A stretch of DNA of 64,000 bases from contig CANFHA010000009.1 of assembly GCA_947446645.1 (NCBI GenBank), positions 73,179-137,178 of the forward strand, in the 5' to 3' direction. Positions 2,792-45,510 of the stretch are shown piece by piece; position 1 is the first letter of the stretch; every line of letters starts with the position of its first letter. Below the pieces are notes generated by a model. It was given only the letters and a program-made list of their open reading frames with translations. It made no database searches and was not told the DNA's origin. The position numbers were made by a program, and so were the translations under genes. This DNA comes from Chitinophagaceae bacterium (GTDB lineage Bacteria; Bacteroidota; Bacteroidia; Chitinophagales; Chitinophagaceae).

Positions 2792-3994
2792 CTATTGCCC
2801 CCAATTATTGCCGGCATCAAAATAGCTATTCAACTCTTCAGTAGTCGTTTTCCTCCATTTGAACACGGTCTGTTGATTGTTCACGATTGTGACATCCATT
2901 TTAGAAGTTACCAGTTCACCGTTTTTGTTGGCGGTTGCTATCATTCTTGCCTGGTAGCCAATGGGCAGACCGGCTAATTCGCGTGTACCTGTCACTTCCG
3001 TATTAAAGAAAGAGTATGCCACTACTGAATTGATCTGCTTATAAACTATAAATACCCGCGCATAATAAATACTGTCCTTAGGATCTATGGTATAGCTAAT
3101 ATTGGTTTTATCCGCAGTAGAGAATCTGTCGCAATTGATCCACCCAAGCTGCCTGATACTAGTTATGTCATACAAGCTTGCATTCAACTTTTGGGTGGTC
3201 GTAACTATTTCTTTCATTTTTTCAGTGGAAATAGAATCACGTAGTGTAGCACCCCTTTTTTCCAGTTCAGCAGTATATTTTTCTCTTTCCTTAATGGAGC
3301 CGAGAGCTGCATAATCCCTTTTATATGCCTTCTCGCTACCTACATATCCCATCAGCTTATAGCTTTTTGGGTTGTATACCATGATAGATTTTCCATCGCC
3401 GGTATCGCGGGTGTCCACGCCATAGCCATTCTTGGCACTTAGCTGTTCATTTGTCGGTTGCCAGTTCATTTGACCTGTGCTATCGCGTTGTCCATTAAAC
3501 AGCATCATAGTAGTGTCCGTAATTTTTGGAAAGGCTATTTTCAAAGACCTACCGTTTCTAATTTTCAGTTTCTTCCCGTCAGATGTCATATTCACGTAAT
3601 AGGCACCGCCGGAAACCAACAATTTTCCGTCTGATAAAGTTTGTGCGTTAGCCCGCGCCAACTCAGCAGCGTTTGTCAATTCTTTCAGTTCCACAACTAT
3701 TTTATTTCCCGGTGCCTGGCCATCTTCGGTCTCCAGGTCTTTCGGTGTCAGAAAAATGACGGTTCCCTTTTTTCCTTTTATCAGCGATAGCTGGTCACCG
3801 GGGGCAGAAAATATCTGTGAGGGCACGTCCAGTTTTTTAAGTGTTTCGTTCAGGCTGGTTTCCTCTTGCTTTATTTTTTCAGCAGTCGGCTGCTGTTCAT
3901 TATTCTGGGTGCTGTTTGTGTTGTTACACCCGTATGATAGCAAAACAAATAGAGCGAATACAGCGGTGTAGAATGATAGAACAGGGACCTTCAT
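2792..3994 (-). CDS. hypothetical lipoprotein
   Basis: 400-aa ORF with hydrophobic leader ending LSYGC (lipobox) followed by an N/Q-rich linker. Confidence 0.8.
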   Translation of the reverse strand: MKVPVLSFYTAVFALFVLLSYGCNNTNSTQNNEQQPTAEKIKQEETSLNETLKKLDVPSQIFSAPGDQLSLIKGKKGTVIFLTPKDLETEDGQAPGNKIVVELKELTNAAELARANAQTLSDGKLLVSGGAYYVNMTSDGKKLKIRNGRSLKIAFPKITDTTMMLFNGQRDSTGQMNWQPTNEQLSAKNGYGVDTRDTGDGKSIMVYNPKSYKLMGYVGSEKAYKRDYAALGSIKEREKYTAELEKRGATLRDSISTEKMKEIVTTTQKLNASLYDITSIRQLGWINCDRFSTADKTNISYTIDPKDSIYYARVFIVYKQINSVVAYSFFNTEVTGTRELAGLPIGYQARMIATANKNGELVTSKMDVTIVNNQQTVFKWRKTTTEELNSYFDAGNNWGQ

Positions 3995-4114
3995 TTTGAG
4001 ATATTTATATTGAAAATACTAAAAGCAATCAACGAATTATTGAAACAACAATGAGTTGTTGTTAATCATACTTTTGTCGGGGCTAATGTTCACACACTTT
4101 TTAAGCAATAACCA

Positions 4115-5812
4115 TTACCGCTTCTTCACCCGCTTAATATCTATAATGTTCATGGGATTACTCCTAAATCCGGAAACGCTGTTTTGAGTGAAGTGGTAAA
4201 GCCGCTCGTAGTATAGTGGTACCACAGGCGCATAGCTCATCACCAGGCTATCCATCTGTCTATACATGGCCCACCTGGCCGTGTCCGGCAGGTTCAGGCT
4301 TTCATCATACCATTTGTCGAATGTGGCGTTATTGAAACGCGTGTAGTTTGGTGGTGCCGGAAAACGACTGTTGAAGAAAACCAAATAAGTCTCAGCATCC
4401 GGGTAGTCGGCCAGCCACTGCGCCCTGAAAAATAGGGCCTTTGACCTGCTCATTTGCTGTTTCAGTATGTTAGGCTGTATCAACTCTATGTTTACGGTTA
4501 TGCCCACCTCTTGCAGTTCACTGGCTATAAAGTTTACTATGTCCTCAAAGTTATTAGGCACTAATATTTTTATAGGCTTTAGTCCCTTTCCGTTCGGATA
4601 CCCGGCTGCTGCAAGCAGCCTTAATGCTTTGGCCGGATCGTAGTCATAGCCATAATGGGCGCCGCTGTCATACCCCGGCATGCCAGCAGGAATAAACCCG
4701 CGTGTAGCTGGTATCTCCATACCATTCTTAAAGTAGGTCACAATCTTCTGCCTGTTTATAGCATAGTTTATAGCCTGTCTTACCAGTTGGTTTTTCGTAG
4801 GCTCATCTTTCATAGCATCGTTCGCCGTATCGGTAAGAAAGCCCAGGTATTCAGTATTGAGATAGGTGTTTTTATCAAGATGAAATTTACCCGCGAATTC
4901 CTTTTTCAGGTTGCCGTCTTTATACAGCAAAAGATCTTTGAAGGAGCCATCGACACCATTTACAAAATCTATCTTCCCCTGGCGAAACAGCAAAAACTCT
5001 GTCGCCTTACTATCTACAAATGACAGCTGCACTGCGCTGAGGTATGGCAATGCACGGCCGGTGCTATCGTGCTCCCAGTAGTGCGGGTTTCGCAGCAGGT
5101 TCAGCGCGTTGCCCTCATCCCAATAGCTGAGCTGAAAAGGACCCGTGCCACACGGGTGATTGCGAAAATCTTTACCCCAATGCTCTGCTACCTCATGTGG
5201 AACTACACTGCAATAAGACATGCTGAGCATCTCGGGCAACGGGCGGAAAGGTGCGCGCAGATGTATCTGAAAAGTCGTGTCGTTAATAGCAACAAAAGGA
5301 TCTGAAGTAGTCACTCTGCCGTTAAATATCCACGCACCAGGTGAGGCCGTTTTTGATGCTACTATACGGTTGAAACTGTACACAACATCCTGTGCTTTCA
5401 TCAGTCTCCCCTTGCCGCCGGGGAATAACACATTGTCCTGAAAAAAAACATCGCCACGTAAATGAAATGTATAGGTAAGACCACTTTCATCCACCTCCCA
5501 TTTCTTTGCAAGAGATGGCACTGTTCTCAGTTGTTCGTCCGTCTCCACCAGTGTATTATAGAGCATGTGGTCCAGCCACATCATATTCAGATCTTTGGCA
5601 AAGGCAGGGTCAAGCGATTCGAGATAACCGCTGGAAATGTTGAGATAAAAAACGTCATTTGATCTTGTTGTTTCCGCAGACTTACAGGCTGCGAACAGCG
5701 CGAAAAAAAGTAACAATATTTTCGATGGGGTCCGCTGCGGAGTACAGATGCCAGAAAAATAACTTCGCCTGTGCGCCTGCACGCTGTTGCGGTTAAAGTT
5801 TCTGTTACCCAT
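4115..5812 (-). CDS. ABC transporter substrate-binding protein, family 5 (DppA/OppA-like); true start probably downstream
   Basis: LDPA, LYNTLV, PSLAKKWEV, YTFHLRGDV, GTGPF, W.ADYPD motifs; lipobox FAAC. Confidence 0.9.
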   Translation of the reverse strand: MGNRNFNRNSVQAHRRSYFSGICTPQRTPSKILLLFFALFAACKSAETTRSNDVFYLNISSGYLESLDPAFAKDLNMMWLDHMLYNTLVETDEQLRTVPSLAKKWEVDESGLTYTFHLRGDVFFQDNVLFPGGKGRLMKAQDVVYSFNRIVASKTASPGAWIFNGRVTTSDPFVAINDTTFQIHLRAPFRPLPEMLSMSYCSVVPHEVAEHWGKDFRNHPCGTGPFQLSYWDEGNALNLLRNPHYWEHDSTGRALPYLSAVQLSFVDSKATEFLLFRQGKIDFVNGVDGSFKDLLLYKDGNLKKEFAGKFHLDKNTYLNTEYLGFLTDTANDAMKDEPTKNQLVRQAINYAINRQKIVTYFKNGMEIPATRGFIPAGMPGYDSGAHYGYDYDPAKALRLLAAAGYPNGKGLKPIKILVPNNFEDIVNFIASELQEVGITVNIELIQPNILKQQMSRSKALFFRAQWLADYPDAETYLVFFNSRFPAPPNYTRFNNATFDKWYDESLNLPDTARWAMYRQMDSLVMSYAPVVPLYYERLYHFTQNSVSGFRSNPMNIIDIKRVKKR

Positions 5813-20068: not shown

Positions 20069-23000
20069 TTAGAGGTCATCAATCTCTGTTACTTTATCTT
20101 CTTCGGGCCTTATAAGCTCATACCTTTTAGCAAAGTTGCACCAGTGGCAGGTTTCCTTACCGCAACCCTTGTCAAACTCATGGTTCATTATCCGGCTATA
20201 AGTATCCTTTATTTGTCCACGCACTATTTCTTCATCCTGTGCAAATACCGGCACTACTATTTGCTTATACTCACCGTTTTTATTTTTCTGCACAAAGTCA
20301 AACATACCGAGTGTCACCTTCCAGTTCTTATCCTCATAGTTTTCAAGCAGTAGCTTATAGAAAACCATTTGCCGCCAGTAGTCGCCGCCCAGTGGTTCTT
20401 TCTCATTTGGGGGTGCTGTGTTTGGTGTCGCTGATTTGTCAGGGTCACCGGTTTTATAATCCACCACCTTGCAGTTGTTTCCGCTCAGCTCTATCTTATC
20501 TATTTTGCCGGTCACAGGTACTCCGTCCAGTATATAGCGGGGCACTTTAAATTCTATCTCCACATCTTTTGACCAGGTGTTTATATAGTGGTCGTAGTAC
20601 TCCGTAAGTAAGGCATGCCCCTGTTCCATCCTGCGGTCAAACTGCACCGGGGTAAAGCACGATGCTTCAGAATAGAGCGCAGAGTTGAAGGTACCCAGCA
20701 CATGGTCCTTATCCGGGAACTCACCGTTTTTCTCCTTCATGTCACGAAACATCCGCTCCAGTGCATAGTGCACGGCACTACCAAAGGCCAGCGCATCATT
20801 TTTCTGGAAGGGCACCTTAAGCACCGTTTCGTAATAGAACGCCAGCGGGCAACGCAGGAATTTAGACAATGCTGTATAGCTCATAATGAACTGCTGCAGT
20901 ACACGTTCTATCCATTCAGCATTGGCCATTTTTATTCGTACCTCAGGCACGGGCTGCAGTGCCCACTGCATATGCTTTATCAGTTCATCACCAGGTACCG
21001 CCCGTGCTTCACGTTCTTCTGCACTGCTTATCTCATCAATAAATACTGAGCTCTCAATGGCCTTGCCGGCATTATCGTTCAGGGCATAAGACACCTGCAG
21101 GTATTTCTTTGCCCGGGTAAGGGCCACGAAAAACAGCCTTCTTGCCACTTCCGTTTTATAGCTCTTCTCCGGGTCTTCATCAGTGGCGGTTATCGTATCA
21201 GGCATGCGGTACTCATTGCCTCCGCCCCGCTTACCTTCCCAATAGTTCTTTGTCACACCTACTAGGTATACGTATTCAAACTCATTTCCCTTCGCGCTGT
21301 GCGTGGTATAGAAGTGAACACCATTCTCATGCTGTATCACCCGCTGCAGGGGCACCGCTATGTTCTCATCGTTCATCCGGTCTATCATTTGTAAAAACTC
21401 CACCGGCTTTATTTTCGGGTTGCGCCCGTAGGTTTCCTTTACAAACTCAAAGAAGGTATATAGCGCCTGTATATTCCATACGTGATCAGTAGTTCTTACC
21501 TGGTGGGCCACAATGCCGCTTTCGTGTACTATCTTTTCTATGAGCAGTGGCAATGGCAGGCTCAGCTGTGCCTTCTCCCATTGGTCAAGATTATTTCCCA
21601 GTCGCTGCAGGGCCTTTGCTGATCGCAGGTTCAGTGATTCTATCAGCAATGGGTTCGACAGCAGCAGTCGCCATTTCACTGGCCCTCGTTCTTTACGGCT
21701 ATTGCTGATATATAGCGAAAGCATAGCAATATCAGTAGGTTCTATACCGTAGTAGGGAGCATGCATTATTTCAAACAATACTTCCTCACCGTCAAATGTC
21801 TTTTTGCGTTCCAGTTCCAGGTAGCGCAGTACATTGAATATTTGTTCCGTAAGAGGAAGTTCCAGAATGTTTACGGGCTTTTTCACATTATAGGGTATGC
21901 CCTTGCGGTCCATAAGCGCCATAATGTTCTCTGCCTGCTTATGCTGTGCATACAGTATAGCTACCTCGCTCAGTGGTTTTCCTTCCTGCTGCATTTTTTC
22001 TATCTGCATTACCAGTTCGGCCTCTTCCTGCAGTATGTTGTTATATACCTTCACCACAGGTACCACATTCTCATTGCCATCTTTAAACCGGGTGCCGGCA
22101 GATATGATGTTCTTATCAAGCCCCAGGTCAGACAGTTGGTTTATCAACCGGTTCTTATTATTCTCTATGCTGGCCATTGCCTTATCCAGTATGGCCTGCG
22201 ATGAGCGGTAGTTGTGCGGCAGCACCACTATTTTTATATGCTCACGGTATCGCTCATAAAAGTCAACAATGTTGCGTATGCGCGCGCCCTGAAATTCATA
22301 AATGCTCTGGTCATCATCGCCTACTACAAAAATGTTCGGGTCGTCCCAGTAAGAAGTAAGATAAGTAATGAGCTCGCTTTGCGCCCCGTTTGTATCCTGG
22401 AACTCATCTGCCAGTATAAACTGGTATCGCTCCTGGTAGCTCTGCAGCAGCGCCGGGTTGTTTTTAAACGCATCCAGCACCCAGATGATCATGTCGTTGA
22501 AGTCATAGCGGCCCCACTCCTTCATCATTTTGTCGTATGAATCGAACAGCAGCGCGGCTCCCCTGGTGGCCTCCATCTTCCTCATTTCCTCTTCCACCAG
22601 TTTTTCCTTTACATCGCCCTTTTTGTATCCCTTTCCGTTTCGCTGGTATATGTATTCCTCACGTGTGGGCAGGTCTATTATGTAGTCGTCTATAGCTTTA
22701 GAGATGTATTGCGGATCAAGGTGCTCCCGCTTCATCACGTCAAACAGGCGATTCAGCTTACCGGCATCAAAGTAGATGTTGCCGCTTAGTTTCCTCAGCA
22801 CATGGCCCTGTGGTAGCTCATCCAGTATTTTATACAGCAGCTCGGTGCGCTCCAGGTCGCTTATGGGCTGCAGGCTGCGCAGGCTGAAGTACTCACTGTT
22901 TTTTTGAATTACGTTGTTGCAAAATGAGTGGAACGTATGAATGTTCACCTTATGCGCTGCCGGGCCGGTTATCTGTACCAGCCTGCGCCGCATGGAGTTA

Positions 23001-23218
23001 GTGGCTTCATCCGTATACGTGAGGCAAAGAATCTCGTGTGGTTGCACCTGTGCTTCACTCCGCATCAGGTTCGCTATGCGCATAGACAGCACTTCCGTTT
23101 TGCCGGTACCGGGCCCGGCTATCACCATCACAGCGCCGTATATAGTGTCTACGGCTTCCTTCTGCCGGTCATTCAGCGCATTATACCGTTCCTTGAACAG
23201 GCTTTCATCTATAGTCAT
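20069..23218 (-). CDS. UvrD/Rep-family helicase with C-terminal PD-(D/E)XK nuclease
   Basis: AGPGTGKT, DEFQDTN, VGDDDQSIYEFQGA, HSAKGNEF, FVALTRAK; GKIDKI..VVDYKTG. Confidence 0.93.
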   Translation of the reverse strand: MTIDESLFKERYNALNDRQKEAVDTIYGAVMVIAGPGTGKTEVLSMRIANLMRSEAQVQPHEILCLTYTDEATNSMRRRLVQITGPAAHKVNIHTFHSFCNNVIQKNSEYFSLRSLQPISDLERTELLYKILDELPQGHVLRKLSGNIYFDAGKLNRLFDVMKREHLDPQYISKAIDDYIIDLPTREEYIYQRNGKGYKKGDVKEKLVEEEMRKMEATRGAALLFDSYDKMMKEWGRYDFNDMIIWVLDAFKNNPALLQSYQERYQFILADEFQDTNGAQSELITYLTSYWDDPNIFVVGDDDQSIYEFQGARIRNIVDFYERYREHIKIVVLPHNYRSSQAILDKAMASIENNKNRLINQLSDLGLDKNIISAGTRFKDGNENVVPVVKVYNNILQEEAELVMQIEKMQQEGKPLSEVAILYAQHKQAENIMALMDRKGIPYNVKKPVNILELPLTEQIFNVLRYLELERKKTFDGEEVLFEIMHAPYYGIEPTDIAMLSLYISNSRKERGPVKWRLLLSNPLLIESLNLRSAKALQRLGNNLDQWEKAQLSLPLPLLIEKIVHESGIVAHQVRTTDHVWNIQALYTFFEFVKETYGRNPKIKPVEFLQMIDRMNDENIAVPLQRVIQHENGVHFYTTHSAKGNEFEYVYLVGVTKNYWEGKRGGGNEYRMPDTITATDEDPEKSYKTEVARRLFFVALTRAKKYLQVSYALNDNAGKAIESSVFIDEISSAEEREARAVPGDELIKHMQWALQPVPEVRIKMANAEWIERVLQQFIMSYTALSKFLRCPLAFYYETVLKVPFQKNDALAFGSAVHYALERMFRDMKEKNGEFPDKDHVLGTFNSALYSEASCFTPVQFDRRMEQGHALLTEYYDHYINTWSKDVEIEFKVPRYILDGVPVTGKIDKIELSGNNCKVVDYKTGDPDKSATPNTAPPNEKEPLGGDYWRQMVFYKLLLENYEDKNWKVTLGMFDFVQKNKNGEYKQIVVPVFAQDEEIVRGQIKDTYSRIMNHEFDKGCGKETCHWCNFAKRYELIRPEEDKVTEIDDL

Positions 23219-23442
23219 ATGTTTTTCTAAAAACTGAAGTTAAGAAAAATGGTGCCACACCCATTGTTCATCTGAATTGCGGATCACCTGCACGGCCGGT
23301 ATATACCTAACCAAAACGCCTTTGCCTGTTATTCATCAGGTTTTCAAAGTTAATGAACACAGATACCTCTTTCCTCTACTCTCTTCTAAAATACGAACAC
23401 CGGGGCAAACCCGGTGCTCACTGTTTTTTTTAATAATGAGGG

Positions 23443-24165
23443 TCAAAGCTTAGTCTCCCGCAGCAGGTCGCTTTCCTCAATAAACCCGCTATGGCTCCAG
23501 GTAAGCTTTCCATGCTCATATAGCTCCAGGTAGGGTATTCCGGATATGCCTTTCTGCTTCATCAGCTCACTGTTTTCGTCCGCATCTATCTTTACCAGTG
23601 CCAGCTTGTCTTTGCGCTTTTCAGCAAATGCCTCCAGTACCGGCAGCATTTTCTTGCAGGGTTCGCACCACCTGGCATTGTAGTCTACCAGTACATACTT
23701 TGCATCTGTGGTCAATTTGGTTAGTTGTTCTGCGGTCATCCCTCTCACTGCAGCAGCCGTTCCTTTATCTACCGGTTTATCGGCGCCGTTCCATTTCATC
23801 ATACCGCCTTCCATATTATACACCTCGGCAAATCCCATATCCTCCATCTTACTTGCAGCCTTTGAACTTCTTCCGCCGGAGAGGCAATATACAAGCACAG
23901 GCTTGCCTTTGTCCAGCTTGCCAATCTTACCTACAAAGTCATCCCCGTTATAGTCAATGTTTACTGCATTCTTCAGGTGGCCGGCGGCATATTCTTCAGG
24001 CGTCCGCACATCTACCAGCTGCGCATTTGATGTTGCGGCCAGCTTCTGTTCAAATTCCGCTACAGGTATATTCTGTTTTACTGCCTCGTGATGTTCGCCC
24101 GGTGTCTGGCACGATGCCATATTCACCATTGCAGCCAGGAATATTATAAATGTCAGTCGTCTCAT
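23443..24165 (-). CDS. lipoprotein: rhodanese-thioredoxin fusion
   Basis: Lipobox MASC; DVRTPEEY..GH, YCLSGGRS; WCEPC. Confidence 0.9.
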   Translation of the reverse strand: MRRLTFIIFLAAMVNMASCQTPGEHHEAVKQNIPVAEFEQKLAATSNAQLVDVRTPEEYAAGHLKNAVNIDYNGDDFVGKIGKLDKGKPVLVYCLSGGRSSKAASKMEDMGFAEVYNMEGGMMKWNGADKPVDKGTAAAVRGMTAEQLTKLTTDAKYVLVDYNARWCEPCKKMLPVLEAFAEKRKDKLALVKIDADENSELMKQKGISGIPYLELYEHGKLTWSHSGFIEESDLLRETKL

Positions 24166-39694: not shown

Positions 39695-39982
39695 ATGGAA
39701 GTAATAAATAACAAAAAGGAATTTCGTTTTGAGACACCTATGCCCGATGGTGAGTTCGCCCGCCTGGATTACCGCTGGCTAAAGGGTAGCCTGGTAATTA
39801 TGCACACGATAGTGCCGGAATCCGGCAGGGGAAAGGGCATTGGTGCAACCTTAGTAAAATATGTGCTGGAATATGCACGCGCAAACAACCTGAAAGTGAT
39901 CATATACTGTTCGTTTGCGGTAAAGTACGCTAAAGAGCACCCGGAATATAATGATGTGCTGCTGGCAACCCTCAAGGATTAG
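39695..39982 (+). CDS. small GNAT acetyltransferase (YjdJ-like)
   Basis: HTIVP..GRGKGIG..LV, CSF..KY. Confidence 0.88.
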   Translation: MEVINNKKEFRFETPMPDGEFARLDYRWLKGSLVIMHTIVPESGRGKGIGATLVKYVLEYARANNLKVIIYCSFAVKYAKEHPEYNDVLLATLKD

Positions 39983-40241
39983 GGCGGCGTTCATTTTCAG
40001 CCCTTTCCTCCCGCCGCGCAAGCAGGTATAGCAGGAAGGAGATCATCCGCAGCACCAGGAAAGTGATCAGCACCAGCCACAGGTATATCTCCGCCGCATC
40101 CTCGCTCACCATTTCCATACCCTTCACATACGTTATCCTCCACAGCAATACAACGCTGATGATCACCGAAAATATAGCGCAATTGATCAGTATCCGTGGA
40201 CTGAAAAATTCCCTGAGAAGACTCATACTATAAAAGTACAC
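39972..40241 (-). CDS. hypothetical small membrane protein
   Basis: 89 aa, two hydrophobic helices. Confidence 0.6.
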   Translation of the reverse strand: MYFYSMSLLREFFSPRILINCAIFSVIISVVLLWRITYVKGMEMVSEDAAEIYLWLVLITFLVLRMISFLLYLLARREERAENERRPNP

Positions 40242-40310
40242 AGGTTTTTATTTAAACCAAACACAGTTCCACTAATCACATTGAGGGCTAAATTTAGGGC
40301 CGCGTAACAC

Positions 40311-40378
40311 ACTCCCTACTTTTTTCAAGCAGGGGATGCCGGACAAACGGCGAAGCCGGTTTATCGGCTGGGGTGGTT
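40311..40378. repeat. REP-like double-hairpin element
   Basis: ccctact..agcaggg hairpin, then gccggacaaacggc-gaa-gccggtttatcggc, then tggggtgg. Confidence 0.5.
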
Positions 40379-40432
40379 CATATCGCGCTTATCACATCGC
40401 TCATGTAAAATATTGCTAGACTATTTAACCAA

Positions 40433-41254
40433 TCAACCTTTCAACTTCCCCCCATCCATCATCCGCTTCATCTCCATCACATCCATTTCCAGGTCGGCCA
40501 GGCGGTGGTATACTTCTGCAGGCTCGCTGAAGTCGCTGCTTATTTTCATGCGGCCGTACCATACTTCTTTTATGTCCTCCGGCTCTATCTCCAGCGTAGG
40601 GAACTCATGCCTGTGAGCAATTGTGTCAGATTTCAGATATAGCTTGCCACGCTCCTTCAGGCGGTTCACCACCCGCTTCACAGCTACGCCGCCCGTGTGC
40701 ACCACTACATATACCCGGTTGTCGCGTATTTTGTCCAGTTCGTCTATCCATTCACCTATTATCCGGTCGCCGTGCAGCACGTTTGGCGCCATAGATGGTC
40801 CGTCTACTTCAAACATCCTGTACGTAGCATTATTCAGACCCGGCAGGCGAAAGGTGGGCAGCGACTCCATAAACTCCACATCGCCGTAGCCATTCAGGTA
40901 GCCCGCCCTGGCTTTCACAGGCACATATATTATGTTGTCGTTCCCGCTGTTGTCTACCGTTATTATTTTGGGTATACTGCTATATCCTATTAGTGGCTTC
41001 TGGCCAAATGCACCACGCAGCATCATATCCTTTTCACCGCTCCTTATAAATTCCTCCATGTTTTTTGACAAGAGTTCATCCAGCGTTATTCCAAAATAAT
41101 TGGAAAATGTGAGTAGCGTATCCACATTTGGTTCGCTTATTCCAGACTCATAATTAGCTATGGTCGTGCGCCCAATATTCACCTCTGAGCTAAGCGCATC
41201 CTGCGTTTTGCCCATTTTTTTCCGAAGAAATTTAAGATTGCTTGCTAAGTACAT
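40433..41254 (-). CDS. CI-like XRE repressor with S24 peptidase domain
   Basis: N-terminal HTH (NLKFLRK..TQ..IANYESG.SEP); FEVDGPSMAP (Ser) and VAVKRV (Lys) dyad. Confidence 0.93.
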   Translation of the reverse strand: MYLASNLKFLRKKMGKTQDALSSEVNIGRTTIANYESGISEPNVDTLLTFSNYFGITLDELLSKNMEEFIRSGEKDMMLRGAFGQKPLIGYSSIPKIITVDNSGNDNIIYVPVKARAGYLNGYGDVEFMESLPTFRLPGLNNATYRMFEVDGPSMAPNVLHGDRIIGEWIDELDKIRDNRVYVVVHTGGVAVKRVVNRLKERGKLYLKSDTIAHRHEFPTLEIEPEDIKEVWYGRMKISSDFSEPAEVYHRLADLEMDVMEMKRMMDGGKLKG

Positions 41255-41258
41255 GTCA

Positions 41259-41318
41259 CAAAAGTAAGATTATTTTTCCACAAAATTTGGATTTGTCAAA
41301 ATATTTGGAATATCTTTG
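41259..41318. promoter_or_regulatory. divergent Bacteroidota sigma-A promoters
   Basis: TACTTTTG on minus strand (41266-41259); TATCTTTG on plus strand (41311-41318) with TTTG at 41286, 21 nt upstream. Confidence 0.65.
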
Positions 41319-41400
41319 TGTCGGATTTGATGCTTATGTATCAAAAATACAAAAGAATAATAGCGAATGCCAAATAAATTGTAAAAACGACAGCCCCTTT

Positions 41401-41535
41401 TAAACCGATCATGAAAACTATTGCTATGAATCACTTATCAACCGCTTAACCGACCAACTAAACACAGTCCCTCTAAACCAACCATGAAAACACTTACTAA
41501 TGCCTTATCAACCCATTAACCGTTCAACTAACACA
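41401..41535 (+). repeat. two imperfect tandem copies, each carrying a micro-ORF
   Basis: 41411..41449 MKTIAMNHLSTA*; 41484..41519 MKTLTNALSTH*; 73-bp period. Confidence 0.75.
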
Positions 41536-41567
41536 TCACTATTGATAAACGCTAAAACCGGAAGCAA

Positions 41568-42428
41568 ATGACAAACGAAAAGAAAACACAAGTAAGAGAA
41601 GCCCTCATCCGCTACGTGGGCAATTTCAGTAGCCAGGCAATCGCTGCAGAAAGCCTGCAGGGCATCAGCTCATCTACCATCTCCCAGGTAAAAAATAATA
41701 ATTGGGAGTTGCTCAGCGATCACCTCTGGCACACCATCGCGCGCCAGGTTGGCTTTTACAGCGGTGACTATAACTATAGCGGTCAGCCTGCCGATACCAG
41801 CGCGTACCTGCTGTTGCGCATACTTTTTGGCGATGCCCAGCACTATGCCATGACCTACGGCATAGCCATTGGCACCGGACTTGGCAAAACATTTACCGCT
41901 AGCCAATACAGCAGGGAGAATGAAAATACTTTTTACATAGCCGGCCACGATCAGTATAATCGTAAGTCATTTATGATAGCGCTGATGCAGGCCACCGGAC
42001 TGGAGGCAAAAGGCAGCGTACCGCAAATGATGGAGCAGTTCACGAACCACGTTATTTCACTCGATGAGCCACTGCTTCTGCTCGATGATGCACACAAGCT
42101 CAAAGACCGCGTATTGCACATGGTAGTGCTGCTGGCCAATTCGCTGGCCGGCAAGGCAGGTATCATCGTCATGGGTAGCGGCGATCTGCGCATGCGTGTC
42201 ATAGATGGCGTGCGCCTCAAAAAAGTTGGCTTCGATGAAATATATAAAAGCATTGGCCGCCGCTTCATTACCCTCAGCAGCCTTGGCCCGCGCGATGTAG
42301 ACCTGGTGTGCCACGCGAATGGCATCTATGATGAAGACCTTATAAACCACATAGCCGGTGCATGCGACAATAACCTGCACACTGCCATACAGCTTATCCA
42401 CCAGTCACAAATAAGCCAGGCGGCTTAA
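41568..42428 (+). CDS. MuB-like AAA ATPase with N-terminal HTH
   Basis: ISSSTISQV HTH-like segment; IGTGLGKT; LLLLDDAHKL; GFDEIYKSIGRRF as in Bacteroidota Mu-like B proteins. Confidence 0.85.
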   Translation: MTNEKKTQVREALIRYVGNFSSQAIAAESLQGISSSTISQVKNNNWELLSDHLWHTIARQVGFYSGDYNYSGQPADTSAYLLLRILFGDAQHYAMTYGIAIGTGLGKTFTASQYSRENENTFYIAGHDQYNRKSFMIALMQATGLEAKGSVPQMMEQFTNHVISLDEPLLLLDDAHKLKDRVLHMVVLLANSLAGKAGIIVMGSGDLRMRVIDGVRLKKVGFDEIYKSIGRRFITLSSLGPRDVDLVCHANGIYDEDLINHIAGACDNNLHTAIQLIHQSQISQAA

Positions 42429-42436
42429 AAAGGAAT

Positions 42437-42466
42437 TGTCATTCTGAGCACCGCCGAAGGATGACA
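42437..42466. repeat. short REP-like hairpin (GTCATTCTGAG...GGATGAC)
   Basis: tgtcattc...ggatgaca inverted ends. Confidence 0.45.
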
Positions 42467-42536
42467 TGCGGAAGATGGCATTTAGCCAAACAGCACTTTA
42501 AGGCGGATCATTAAAGAAAAAAACAAACTGATACAT

Positions 42537-42971
42537 ATGTACTACGCAGCAGCACAACAAATAACCGCAGCACGGCATATAGCCCGCACTGCCCAGCGGC
42601 AGATAAAAGAAAAGACCGGCATGAGGGTGAGCATGATGCTCTATTCGCCGGAGGTGGGTTCCAAAACACCGGAGGAAATGCTCCACGTCATAGCACTGGC
42701 GCTGGGCATGCACCCCGATTGCTACCGAATGAAAACAAAAGCGCGCCACATTGTGGAGCTGCGCTTTGTGGCCGCAGTACTGCTTCGCCGCAATTATCCT
42801 ACTATGACACTGCACCAGATCGCCACACTTTTTGGCGGGCAGGATCACTCATCTATCATTAGCGGGCTGGCCCGGGCAAACGATCTTATATACACCGGCG
42901 ACCCGCGCTTTGTAATGAAATACAACAACGCTCTAAAATCTGTAGACCTATGGCTAAAATGCGAGGCATAA
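42537..42971 (+). CDS. DnaA domain IV (Bac_DnaA_C)-like DNA-binding protein
   Basis: TLHQIATLFGGQDHSSII resembles DnaA SLPEIG..FGGRDHTTV. Confidence 0.85.
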   Translation: MYYAAAQQITAARHIARTAQRQIKEKTGMRVSMMLYSPEVGSKTPEEMLHVIALALGMHPDCYRMKTKARHIVELRFVAAVLLRRNYPTMTLHQIATLFGGQDHSSIISGLARANDLIYTGDPRFVMKYNNALKSVDLWLKCEA

Positions 42972-43267
42972 GAGTGCGCATAAGCCACCAGCGCGTAGCC
43001 GCCCTGCAGGAGGTGTGCGAGGAAATGATGGAAGACTTTAGTCCGCAAAACGATCACCAGTTGCTGCTTGGCGAGTACCTGCAGGAGCTGCACGGCAAGC
43101 TGAAAGAAATGGCCGGCCGCAACCAGGAAATGTATACGCTGATACTCGTAGGCTCTGAAGCCACCGCTTTCTACCAGCTCTGGAAAATGCTGGATATAAG
43201 CCGCGATAAATACGCCGTACTCATCGTAGACAACCTCCTCGAAAAAATGAGTGCTCTGGCAGCGTAG
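42959..43267 (+). CDS. hypothetical protein
   Basis: About 102 aa, overlaps the upstream stop (coupled). Confidence 0.75.
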   Translation: MRGIRVRISHQRVAALQEVCEEMMEDFSPQNDHQLLLGEYLQELHGKLKEMAGRNQEMYTLILVGSEATAFYQLWKMLDISRDKYAVLIVDNLLEKMSALAA

Positions 43268-43515
43268 AGAACGTTCATATTGAAGATCTTTCGGTAGATA
43301 GAGGAACTGAAGTTGAGCAGATGATGGCGCCTTTTTTGCCGTAGATGCTGATTCTTTGCTAGTAAAAGGCTGTAAGCTGAGCCATGGAATGAAGCTACTG
43401 AATTGCAATGGTAGGCAAAAAATTCAGCGCCATGCAACTGAGTAGAGAACTGCGTCAACAGCGTAGAGCCCTTTTTTTCCGGCGGAGCCTTTGAAAAAAA
43501 TCGCCTTTCTTTTTG

Positions 43516-43549
43516 TTACTTTTTCTTTGTCGAAGCAAAGAAAAAGTAA
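43516..43549. repeat. perfect 14-bp hairpin, REP-like
   Basis: ttactttttctttg-tcgaag-caaagaaaaagtaa. Confidence 0.75.
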
Positions 43550-43647
43550 GGTAACACTGATCACAAATCCCAGTGGCACGAAATTATATTATCGTTATCA
43601 AATACCAATAGTAAAATTCGTGCTGCGGAGGTTGAAAAACTTTAACT

Positions 43648-44160
43648 ATGAAAACAAGAAACGCAACAAAACCTGTTACTGAGATCACCGCAGCTGGCTT
43701 TGAAGAAGCCATGCAGCGGTATGCAGCAGCTGAGCAGCGCGAAGCAGAAATAAATAAGGCTATTGAGCTTGAAGTGAACGAGTTACTTGAAAGATACAAC
43801 GATGAGCTCATGTGTCTTTCTCAAACCAAAACAATAGCTTTCAGCCTGGTGCAGGCCTATTGCCTGGCAAACAAAGAAGTTCTTTTCGACAAACGCAGGA
43901 GCATAGGTACGCTTCATGGTGTTGCCGGTTTCAGGCTGGGTACACCCCGGCTTAAGACAGTAAAGGGAACTAATTGGGAAAAAGTGCTCAACGGGTTGAG
44001 GATAAAACTGCCCGCCTATGTACGTGTATCAGAAGAACCAGCAAAAGACCTGTTGTTGGCAGACCGCCACAAAGAAAATGTGGCATCGTTGTTGCACGAA
44101 ATTGGGGTGCAGGTAGTGCAGGATGAGTTATTCTATATTGAATCAAAAAGAGCAGCATAA
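43648..44160 (+). CDS. gam: Mu Gam-like host-nuclease inhibitor (DNA end-binding)
   Basis: N-terminal coiled coil; HGVAGFRLGTPRLK; YVRVSEEPAKDLLLADR; GVQVVQDELFYIE. Confidence 0.88.
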   Translation: MKTRNATKPVTEITAAGFEEAMQRYAAAEQREAEINKAIELEVNELLERYNDELMCLSQTKTIAFSLVQAYCLANKEVLFDKRRSIGTLHGVAGFRLGTPRLKTVKGTNWEKVLNGLRIKLPAYVRVSEEPAKDLLLADRHKENVASLLHEIGVQVVQDELFYIESKRAA

Positions 44161-44311
44161 AAATCGTAGCTTACAAAAGAAATGAGTTTGGTGTTAAACG
44201 GGTACCGTAGCTAAGATTTCGCAGGCAGATGAGAAGATCCTGGTGTTAAACAATATAAAAGCTGATGGCAAAATCCATCAGGCAATTGAAAAACGATCAA
44301 ATAAGACTCAG

Positions 44312-44443
44312 ATGAAAACGAGAAGACAAAAAAAGCACGACATGCTGATAACATTCATGGCAAACGTGAAAAGGGAGAAAAAGCTCAAGGAAGCACCTGC
44401 AAGGCCTAAGCTCCTTAGAACATTCCTTTCTTTTTTCCTTTAA
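44312..44443 (+). CDS. small cationic hypothetical peptide (43 aa)
   Basis: MKTRRQKKHDMLITFMANVKREKKLKEAPARPKLLRTFLSFFL; ATG in AT-rich context. Confidence 0.5.
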   Translation: MKTRRQKKHDMLITFMANVKREKKLKEAPARPKLLRTFLSFFL

Positions 44444-44665
44444 TAAGGATAAAACAGCCACGTTATAGCATCAGCTGATTTTACACTTATACCTTGCCCG
44501 GCAAGTCTTGCCCAGGCAATAAATACATACTCAATTTAAGGGTTGCCGTTAGCACACATTGGTCTGCTCCATTTCTTTTAAAGGGGATAGGTAACGAGCT
44601 CCATTGGCATGATTCTTTAAATCCAATAATAGAGATTATTTCATTACCACCTAACACGATATTTT

Positions 44666-44956
44666 ATGAATAGGACAGCATATATAGCTGGCAAGATATC
44701 AGGCTTGCCGAAACGCGATGTAGAGATCAAATTCGATATGGTTGCAAAGGAATTGTCAGCTATGGGCTACCATGTGGTAAGACCCGTTGCTGTAAGTGAT
44801 GACTCAAAAACCTGGGACGACGCAGTACGCAGCGATATCAAACAAATGCTTGAATGCGACGAAGTACACATGCTACCAGATTGGCAGGACAGCCGCGGCG
44901 CACAATTAGAGCGCGATATAGCCCTTCGCCTCGGTATGGAAGTAGTTTATCACTAA
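44666..44956 (+). CDS. DUF4406 domain protein
   Basis: YIAGKISG, W...R.DIK.MLECD..HML.DW.DSRGA.LE..IA..LG. Confidence 0.9.
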   Translation: MNRTAYIAGKISGLPKRDVEIKFDMVAKELSAMGYHVVRPVAVSDDSKTWDDAVRSDIKQMLECDEVHMLPDWQDSRGAQLERDIALRLGMEVVYH

Positions 44957-44982
44957 CATATTTTCTAAACATCTTTAGTTGG

Positions 44983-45020
44983 AACGGTGTACATGGATCT
45001 TCATGTGCATCGTTTCTTAT
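44983..45020 (+). terminator. intrinsic terminator closing the cassette
   Basis: aacggtgtacatg-gatctt-catgtgcatcgtt followed by tcttat(tt). Confidence 0.75.
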
Positions 45021-45244: not shown

Positions 45245-45510
45245 ATTTCCGCTACCGGAAAAAACCGGAAATTTCCGAGAACTAAGAGCTTGATTTTCAA
45301 CTATAATGTGTGCAAAATACATTTTCCGAACGACCGGAAATTAGAGAAAAAAGGCAAAAAAATCTGCCCTACGTACGTACCCATCCAAACCCGAATTAAC
45401 CAATTTCCGCTACATGAAAAAACCGGAAATTTTTTGCAGGAAAGTAATTGATTATCAATAACAACCTGCGCAAAAATGATTTTTGTGCCAACCGGAAAAA
45501 TCCCGGAAAT
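45245..45510. repeat. iterated CCGGAAA / TTTCCG array
   Basis: CCGGAAA at 45255, 45265, 45334, 45423, 45492, 45503; TTTCCG at 45246, 45272, 45323, 45404. Confidence 0.8.

Follow-up and report, generated by a model that had tools for sequence, protein, structure and literature searches.

Positions 39972–45016 of the 64,000-nucleotide stretch of DNA analysed here (the window) hold a cassette of early genes that derives from a Mu-like bacteriophage, has lost the phage's mobility and particle genes, is inherited vertically and near-universally in the genus Flavipsychrobacter, evolves under purifying selection and retains a conserved promoter-operator region. The window belongs to contig CANFHA010000009.1 of Chitinophagaceae bacterium assembly GCA_947446645.1 (source genome G000, 98% complete), and coordinates given without a contig refer to it. 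That the cassette has been domesticated is well supported, and almost certainly it now serves the host. The explanation that we consider probable is that an early-region module of a Mu-like Bacteroidota phage of the hankyphage/Peternella type has been exapted and is now a self-contained damage switch. An earlier annotation of this DNA, made from the sequence alone (the first-pass annotation), had suggested that the host has kept the cassette, as opposed to its being a prophage in decay. Conserved synteny, ratios of nonsynonymous to synonymous substitution rates (dN/dS) of 0.11–0.43 and a cassette tree that largely follows rpoB all bear this out.

Gene content and Mu-like source of the cassette

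The cassette comprises a leftward repressor gene, termed REP here, with a small membrane protein gene 3' of it, and a divergent rightward unit that ends in a hairpin. All of its genes are open. Its features are as follows.

39972–40241, minus strand: memb89, 89 aa (84 aa counted from a conserved Met), with two transmembrane segments; an accessory part of the cassette, 3' of REP
40433–41254, minus strand: REP, with Pfam matches to HTH_3 (9e-14) and Peptidase_S24 (4e-7) and further matches in PHROGs
41568–42428, plus strand: MuB-like AAA+ ATPase with an N-terminal helix-turn-helix (HTH), matching AAA_22 (1e-11) and phrog_296 'DNA transposition protein' (1e-26)
42537–42971, plus strand: DnaA-IV, a stand-alone DnaA domain IV protein of 144 aa, matching Bac_DnaA_C (3e-9)
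42950–43267, plus strand: hyp105, 105 aa, no family match; its 5' end overlaps the 3' end of DnaA-IV by 22 nt
43648–44160, plus strand: Gam, of the Mu Gam/Ku-like family that binds double-stranded DNA ends, matching Phage_Mu_Gam PF07352 (7.7e-26) and phrog_491
44312–44443, plus strand: core (43 aa) of cat, a small basic peptide; the listed open reading frame (ORF) is 44243–44443, with a GTG start
44666–44956, plus strand: DUF4406, nucleoside 2-deoxyribosyltransferase-like, with matches in Pfam (1e-23) and to phrog_355
44981–45016, plus strand: terminator-like hairpin that ends the rightward unit, with a 16-bp stem and a T-rich tail

ORF listing and family scans recover every gene that the first-pass annotation had named, each of them open, and the hairpin at 44981–45016 agrees with the terminator that it had placed at the end of the unit. 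The inventory itself needs amending in two respects: memb89 also travels with the cassette, and DUF4406 is optional (20 of 44 loci). Host genes lie on both sides, with pst-phoU, YceI and GNAT on the left and SGNH, MBOAT, SGNH and glucosaminidase on the right. No transposase, ner, head, tail, lysis or other particle gene occurs in the cassette or its flanks, and a tblastn search with three Mu-type transposases of Flavipsychrobacter gave no match in the cassette loci or anywhere in G000; the absence of DDE transposase, ner and head/tail genes noted at first pass is upheld by these family scans and by the tblastn search. Neither an ORF nor a remnant of ner or A is detectable in the 313-nt gap between REP and MuB. 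A PF09299 profile search gave no match, with an uninformative control, and no convincing inverted repeats bracket the cassette, the ends of related phages being undefined so that there was no specific end motif to search for. PADLOC returned generic HTH matches for REP and nothing for the other seven proteins, and PADLOC, NCBIfam and Rfam scans together found nothing specific for the cassette.

Complete Mu-like prophages occur sporadically in Flavipsychrobacter, namely L035 (G012:C37:104000–123999) and L036 (G016:C67:1–20000). Their early regions consist of a leftward HTH-S24 repressor followed rightward by one or two small ORFs, a 678–735-aa transposase (phrog_310), MuB (phrog_296) and DnaA-IV, with an additional hyp105 homologue in L036. 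These genes occupy one strand and the particle genes are convergent on the other; portal and MuF-like genes are found in both prophages, a terminase and a tail-fibre gene in L036 and a neck/tail-completion gene in L035. Peternella_1, a phage of Winogradskyella, has a regulator divergent from a small ORF, a DDE transposase and B. The likeness to the early-region order of transposable phages, on which the first-pass annotation had built, is confirmed by L035, L036 and Peternella_1. Two other elements are Mu-like: L040 (G020:C15) has a transposase, MuB, homologues of hyp105 and DUF4406 (the latter 45% identical) and a motif related to that of cat, and L037 (G063:C2:98000–117999) has hyp105 and Gam homologues. 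No particle genes were checked or found in L037 and L040.

Similarity extends from gene order to the proteins and the promoters. The C-terminal domain of REP is 59–60% identical to the repressors of L036 and L037, its full length is 47% identical to the L035 repressor, and the MuB-like protein is 31–32% identical to 'transposase B' of Peternella_1 and of Bacteroides transposable phages. In gene order, with the repressor pointing leftward and B, DnaA-IV, hyp105, Gam, peptide and DUF4406 rightward, the cassette agrees with the early regions of Bacteroidota transposable phages (Peternella_1, hankyphage-type, L035, L036); its proteins are homologous to theirs at 24–60% identity and its promoter layout is the same. 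Unlike these phages, the cassette has no ner, DDE transposase or head, tail and lysis genes, and it is fixed and vertically inherited rather than sporadic. Gene homology, the identity of REP and the promoter layout of L035 thus identify the cassette as a Mu-like early region minus ner, A and all later genes, and by its sequence REP is a c-type repressor of a Mu-like phage that has become fixed in the host.

The rightward proteins retain the residues expected of their families to different degrees. Walker A residues G104, G106 and K107 and Walker B residues D173 and D174 of MuB are invariant or at least 90% conserved among 25 sequences. MuB is gone in genomes G013, G017, G129 and G151, and in L064 (G015:C105), alone among the cassettes, an in-frame TAG stop divides MuB into ORFs of 108 aa and 193 aa, the result of either pseudogene formation or an assembly error. 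The DnaA-IV profile matches solved DnaA structures at 4e-8, with residues ~41–122 aligned to domain IV; domains I–III (AAA+) are lacking, and the host DnaA is encoded by a separate gene on contig C13. Equivalents of E. coli R399, D433 and H434 are invariant in DnaA-IV, that of T435 is T or S, and H439 is not kept; the roles of these five residues we take to be those in the 1J1V complex. On these grounds DnaA-IV should bind a DnaA-box-like sequence. Gam is matched over positions 5–148 of the 149 in the PF07352 profile, and it is absent or truncated in a few loci. An AlphaFold2 (AF2) model of hyp105, with a predicted local distance difference test (pLDDT) score of 79, has the order beta-alpha-alpha-beta-alpha-alpha; it has no fold match in the PDB (best E 0.27), and a profile search against PDB sequences also gave no match. 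The cat peptide matches no family in any library, and its core motif, RRQxKH(D/E)MLLTF ... AP.KP.LL.TLLSFFL, was recovered in 54 loci and persists in reduced cassettes. Homologues of memb89 (74–84 aa, two hydrophobic segments) lie directly 3' of REP in various chromosomal contexts; memb89 has no Pfam family, and its sole PHROG match is weak and holin-like (0.009).

Several further observations concern these elements and the DNA around them. L037 has, at ~3787–5766, a REP-like repressor gene that diverges from genes resembling hyp105 and Gam; no MuB was detected in between, and this may be either a further reduced module or a phage of another type. L035 encodes a reverse transcriptase (RVT_1, 2e-17); Bacteroides hankyphages likewise carry a diversity-generating retroelement (DGR) with a reverse transcriptase. 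Stand-alone DnaA-IV-like proteins (23–50% identity) are encoded in 45 IMG/VR viral contigs (L142–L186) of up to 75 kb, one of which, L149, has the order transposase, MuB, DnaA-IV, Gam. Between hyp105 and Gam lies a 380-nt non-coding gap (43268–43647) with a perfect 14-bp hairpin at 43516–43549; in many relatives the two genes are ~50–150 nt apart, so that the gap looks like an insertion in the subclade of G000. To the right of the cassette, an 'iteron-like' CCGGAAA array at 45245–45510 belongs to a dispersed repeat family that is also found at C21:39020–39716 and at least 16 other places in G000 and is not specific to the cassette. The units of this family include TTGAAAATCAA palindromes, and ACCGGAAAT or its complement occurs 164 times against ~36 expected, with two or more copies at 18 loci. 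An apparent cluster of DnaA boxes on C21 was rejected as copies of a dispersed repeat.

Distribution, selection and descent

A search with the concatenated cassette proteins found a colinear cassette in 39 of 41 sampled Flavipsychrobacter genomes, and the two genomes without it are only 79% and 57% complete. The part from the repressor to the peptide is colinear and intact in ~60 species-level genomes of the genus, and it is single-copy in every genome. The 61 loci found in public genomes are, with two exceptions, labelled as coming from Flavipsychrobacter or 'Taibaiella' metagenome-assembled genomes and from the type strain F. stenotrophus RB1R16, which is cultured and carries the full cassette, within NZ_PPSL01000003.1:7969–24799 (locus L069). 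Loci L066 (CALQJX020000001.1) and L097 (CALRKH020000014.1) are labelled 'Bordetella parapertussis' and 'Asaia bogorensis', respectively; both have the cassette in the usual Flavipsychrobacter flank context, and the labels are almost certainly wrong. Outside the genus, 99 other genera of Chitinophagaceae were sampled; 5 have REP orthologues (68–75% identity), and nearly all the others have only a relative at 30–40%. Three of these five genera have full cassettes. The remaining two have reduced forms, both at the same GNAT-REP junction, that consist of REP, DnaA-IV and DUF4406 and may or may not include the peptide; within Flavipsychrobacter, G013 and G017 have similar reduced forms. The search for this gene order without MuA, which the first-pass annotation had proposed, therefore recovered it in ~60 species and five sister genera, and no relative was found to carry a full prophage at the cassette site.

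Individual parts of the cassette differ in how constantly they are kept. Counts refer to 44 loci for which the flanking sequence is long enough.

REP: 44 loci
DnaA-IV: 44 loci
hyp105: 41 loci
Gam: 40 loci
small peptide (cat): at least 41 loci (54 loci by a looser search)
DUF4406: 20 loci
memb89: at least 16 loci

Gam is also gone from every reduced form. Gam and MuB, both named at first pass, are present in most lineages; unlike the repressor, DnaA-IV and the peptide, they are dispensable in several, which shifts the likely core function away from end protection. The pattern of loss argues that the output under selection is DnaA-IV and the small peptide, rather than Gam or MuB.

At least five chromosomal contexts surround the cassette, each conserved inside its subclade, and L046 combines the left flank of one context with the right flank of another. 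Such intermediates, which share one flank, are better explained by a cassette that stayed in place while its neighbours were rearranged than by one that jumps. The yceI/GNAT-SGNH locus that the first-pass annotation had taken as the site of the cassette survives in part: the GNAT-REP junction is old and widespread, but there is no single fixed site, and the SGNH right flank is peculiar to G000.

Pairwise Nei-Gojobori estimates of dN/dS, from pairs with dS of 0.05–1.5, are well below 1 for every gene, which answers the check that had been proposed at first pass.

REP: 0.11
Gam: 0.15
DUF4406: 0.15
hyp105: 0.22
DnaA-IV: 0.28
MuB: 0.29
memb89: 0.43
adjacent host genes: 0.03–0.10

The proportion of nonsynonymous differences (pN) in REP, 0.147, equals that of phoU. 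Cassette reading frames are intact nearly everywhere across ~60 species, at protein identities that fall to 44–77%. Trees were built for 20 genomes from rpoB nucleotide sequences, as a single-gene species tree, and from five concatenated core cassette proteins. Of 17 splits, 8 are common to both trees, whereas 2000 label shuffles gave 0.24 on average and never more than 3, and patristic distances in the two trees are correlated (r = 0.80, Mantel p ~5e-4).

The repressor, its operator and the host SOS regulator

REP is the most conserved of the cassette genes, with 76–94% identity across Flavipsychrobacter. It consists of an N-terminal PF01381 HTH, a linker, an S24 domain and a conserved C-terminal segment, and the AF2 model (mean pLDDT 64) comprises a five-helix HTH, a disordered linker, a beta-rich domain and a terminal helix. 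The Ala-Gly cleavage site (A117-G118) and the Ser/Lys dyad (S154 and K193) are invariant across orthologues. The last 30 residues are highly conserved, and a helix is modelled at 251–266 with a pLDDT of only ~50. One orthologue carries the NCBI name 'LexA family transcriptional regulator'.

The region between REP and MuB was compared by phylogenetic footprinting, first in 12 loci and later in 49. Its regulatory features, with one site inside REP, are as follows.

41276–41292: primary operator candidate, a TTCCA-N7-TGGA(T/A) palindrome that overlaps the rightward −33 element TTTG (41286–41289)
41311–41318, plus strand: candidate −7 box TATCTTTG of the rightward early promoter, 21 nt past the −33 TTTG
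41259–41266, minus strand: candidate −7 box TACTTTTG of the predicted leftward REP promoter, which fits TAnnTTTG, 4 nt from the ATG
41089–41105: internal operator-like palindrome TTCCAAAATAATTGGAA within the REP coding region, 187 bp from the main operator
41368–41382: conserved leader element TGCCAAATAAATTGT, which resembles the reverse complement of operator half-sites
41396–41531, plus strand: A/C-rich leader of two ~70-nt repeats (families D1 and D7) with twin micro-ORFs

TTCCA-N7-TGGA(A/T) is the dominant conserved non-coding element in the footprints of both the 12 and the 49 loci, and operator and promoter are also kept in all reduced cassettes, including those without MuB. The rightward −7 box is conserved as TAT(C/A)TTTG in nearly all loci, and an equivalent of the TAnnTTTG box of the REP promoter is retained at other loci. 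The spacing of TTTG and TAnnTTTG matches the −33/−7 pattern of Bacteroidota promoters. The L035 prophage has the same promoter layout, with two repeats followed by ATATATTTG, a TAnnTTTG-type box. The site TTCCAAAATAATTGGAA is the only exact TTCCA-N7-TGGAA in the window, and 15 of 53 REP genes have it at this codon position; it may be an auxiliary operator for cooperative binding or looping. The element TGCCAAATAAATTGT, conserved in the footprint of 12 loci, is a possible third repressor half-site. The leader repeats occupy the position of ner and A in genuine Mu-like phages and are not conserved, other species having different TTAACC-type repeats or none. A third, partial and rearranged copy of the repeat that contains the leader micro-ORFs (MKTIAMNHLSTA, MKTLTNALSTH) lies at 40255–40275 and 40385–40418, between memb89 and REP.

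A second exact copy of the 16-mer operator is missing from G000, and the six matches with two mismatches are at roughly chance level, so that REP is apparently a local regulator. The sole similar exact palindrome elsewhere, at C10:96807, was rejected as part of a REP regulon; it adjoins a dispersed repeat, with the 3' end of one gene on one side and, on the other, a start that is far away. A DnaA box at the operator was also considered and rejected: TTTTCCACA fits TT[AT]TNCACA, but the critical C is variable and the 9-mer is matched in 30 of 49 loci, which places the constraint on the TTCCA/TGGA arms.

G000 encodes exactly two S24 proteins, REP and a paralogue on contig C28, which are 28% identical to one another. 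The C28 paralogue (270 aa, 22760–23572) is divergent from imuA (241 aa), imuB (498 aa) and dnaE2 (1077 aa) within C28:17227–23572, and the 70-nt gap between it and imuA contains a perfect palindrome, TTGTTGC-N5-GCAACAA, that is not present in the cassette. Proteins of the paralogue type (30–40% identity to REP) occur in ~91 of 100 Chitinophagaceae genera, and REP orthologues in 6 of 100. Non-canonical LexA proteins of Bacteroidetes (Sanchez-Osuna et al. 2021, PMC8565304) recognize CTAA-N5-TTAG or GGA-N5-TCC, have an extra C-terminal alpha-helix and control recA, umuDC, dinB, imuAB-dnaE2 and other genes. REP has the same domain architecture, with a further C-terminal segment that is modelled as a helix at low confidence, and like these proteins is autoregulatory by position; it differs in its TTCCA-N7-TGGA(A/T) operator and in having no SOS genes under it. 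Neither CTAA-N5-TTAG nor GGA-N5-TCC is found in the REP promoter, and CTAA-N5-TTAG is under-represented in G000 (41 copies against ~100 expected). The true member of the family in this genome is likely the C28 paralogue, in the arrangement that PMC8565304 describes, although its palindrome is not the published CTAA-N5-TTAG. Since the paralogue beside imuA-imuB-dnaE2 fills the role of host SOS regulator, REP does not.

Mechanism, rival explanations and significance

The history and action of the cassette can be outlined as follows. A prophage in an ancestor of Flavipsychrobacter and a few sister genera, probably at the yceI-GNAT locus, lost ner, the transposase and all late genes, and what remained has passed vertically since then under purifying selection. 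As judged from conserved residues and sites, the cassette probably acts as a DNA-damage-triggered switch. REP dimers on TTCCA-N7-TGGA(A/T), which lies over the rightward −33 element and abuts the REP promoter, would repress transcription in both directions. On DNA damage, RecA filaments would stimulate self-cleavage of REP at Ala117-Gly118 through Ser154/Lys193 and so release rightward transcription. DnaA-IV and the small basic peptide would be the constant output, to which most species would add the MuB-like ATPase, hyp105 and Gam. Our best guess as to the effect is a LexA-independent damage response in which DnaA-IV, on DnaA-box-like DNA, would hold back replication initiation or retune transcription, and Gam, where present, would cap broken DNA ends. 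The module would be separate from the host SOS regulon, which the C28 paralogue would control. A more specific proposal, that REP gates DnaA-IV and the peptide as a phage-derived, LexA-independent damage checkpoint in which DnaA-IV blocks rounds of replication or rewires the DnaA regulon and Gam and MuB handle broken DNA, is speculative and, in our judgement, rather improbable.

Some points weigh against an exapted damage switch. RecA-dependent cleavage of REP is deduced from conserved residues alone, and REP is paired with its palindrome by position and conservation. No target of DnaA-IV was found, and the DnaA-box-like 9-mer in the operator is retained in just 30 of 49 loci. MuB would have to act without MuA, and the host already has a canonical Ku, which lessens the need for Gam. 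Cassette neighbours differ among subclades, with breakpoints at the cassette edges. The dN/dS values come from a minority of comparisons, dS being saturated for most pairs. In an approximately unbiased (AU) test, the precise topology of rpoB is rejected as a tree of the cassette (p ~1e-4), so that some transfer of the cassette within the genus may have occurred; the nodes that differ have weak support in the rpoB tree.

Other explanations account for parts of these data. The cassette might be an anti-phage device against Mu-like phages that infect Flavipsychrobacter, with REP conferring immunity or interfering with incoming repressors, memb89 excluding superinfection and MuB poisoning target capture by incoming transposases. 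Complete Mu-like prophages do circulate in the genus, with repressors 47–60% identical to REP and a similar operator layout; the two-transmembrane memb89 is co-oriented 3' of the repressor, like many exclusion genes; and MuB-mediated target immunity is established for Mu in work cited in PMC8987985. We nevertheless regard this as unlikely. REP and its near-invariant operator are among the slowest-evolving parts, and the module is near-universal and single-copy rather than patchy, which is not the pattern of arms-race genes. Resident phages have operators of a different sequence, memb89 and MuB are parts that get lost, and no PADLOC defence family was found beyond the generic HTH. A helper-dependent satellite, or natural mini-Mu, mobilised by the transposase of a co-resident Mu-like phage would explain why the element keeps MuB and misses a transposase of its own, why its flanks vary by subclade with breakpoints at the edges and why the AU test rejects the rpoB topology. 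It is very improbable given that the cassette is single-copy in every genome, has a context that is conserved within clades, shares one flank even where contexts are mixed (L046) and keeps the GNAT-REP junction even in other genera. There are no bracketing terminal inverted repeats, G000 has no transposase to act in trans, and the cassette and rpoB trees agree broadly.

A neutral, slowly decaying prophage remnant is the least credible explanation, and the conservation data refute it. Gam, hyp105, MuB and DUF4406 are lost in some lineages and one MuB has an in-frame stop, as decay would produce, but frames are intact over ~60 species at 44–77% protein identity with dN/dS of 0.11–0.43, and the catalytic motifs are invariant in REP and invariant or nearly so in MuB. 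Alternatively, REP could be the master SOS regulator of the genus, a non-canonical LexA with the cassette as one SOS operon among others. The architecture of REP, which is that of the Bacteroidetes non-canonical LexA family (PMC8565304), and the 'LexA family' name of one orthologue favour this. The second HTH-S24 protein stands against it, being divergent from imuA-imuB-dnaE2 over its own perfect palindrome and of a type present in ~91 of 100 genera as opposed to 6 for REP orthologues; with no second exact REP operator in G000 and two-mismatch matches at about chance level, a master role for REP seems highly unlikely.

Known systems offer precedents for several features of an exapted, damage-controlled module. 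The closest parallel in regulation is Francisella FddR, a co-opted phage S24 repressor with a divergent gene that is genus-wide and DNA-damage-induced (PMC13148647). Like FddR, REP is a phage-type HTH-S24 repressor with intact cleavage residues that is clade-restricted and near-universal in its clade, and it has a palindromic operator in a shared divergent promoter that serves a small self-contained unit, not a large regulon. Unlike FddR, the cassette has cargo that is still recognisable as phage early genes (MuB, DnaA-IV, Gam), so that its Mu-like source can be named, and it coexists with a separate SOS-type regulator; induction is shown for FddR and predicted for the cassette. In the 'captured prophage repressor' model of PMC8565304 (Fig. 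9), REP resembles stage 2, a disrupted prophage with the repressor kept. Mu Gam caps DNA ends and supports end joining with host ligase (d'Adda di Fagagna 2003; Bhattacharyya 2018, as cited in PMC8987985). As with the Gam-Ku homologues of defective Mu-like prophages, a chromosomal Gam is kept inside a defective Mu-like element; in contrast to those homologues, the cassette Gam is not constant (lost from 4 of 44 loci and all reduced forms) and the host has a canonical Ku. The YfdR cluster of an E. coli cryptic prophage, which inhibits replication initiation through DnaA (PMC4776307), is a precedent for a prophage-remnant gene that acts on chromosomal initiation. YfdR binds the DnaA protein, whereas DnaA-IV copies the DNA-binding domain of DnaA, and its effect on initiation is hypothetical.

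SOS control in Bacteroidota has been proposed to originate from co-opted phage repressors, and experimental demonstrations of such co-option are few, Francisella FddR among them. In Flavipsychrobacter, the donor (complete Mu-like prophages) and the product (a fixed derivative without transposase) occur in one genus, so that each gene can be followed along the way from prophage to host circuit. Judged by what has been lost, DnaA-IV and the 43-aa basic peptide, neither with an assigned function, stand out as the parts indispensable to the host. Because DnaA-IV-like proteins are found in 45 viral contigs, learning what DnaA-IV does would also annotate a recurrent phage gene. If REP does gate a damage checkpoint, the cassette would be the first SOS-type brake on replication initiation made from a copy of the initiator's own DNA-binding domain, and it would represent a living intermediate in the proposed route from a Mu-like repressor to a Bacteroidota SOS regulator.

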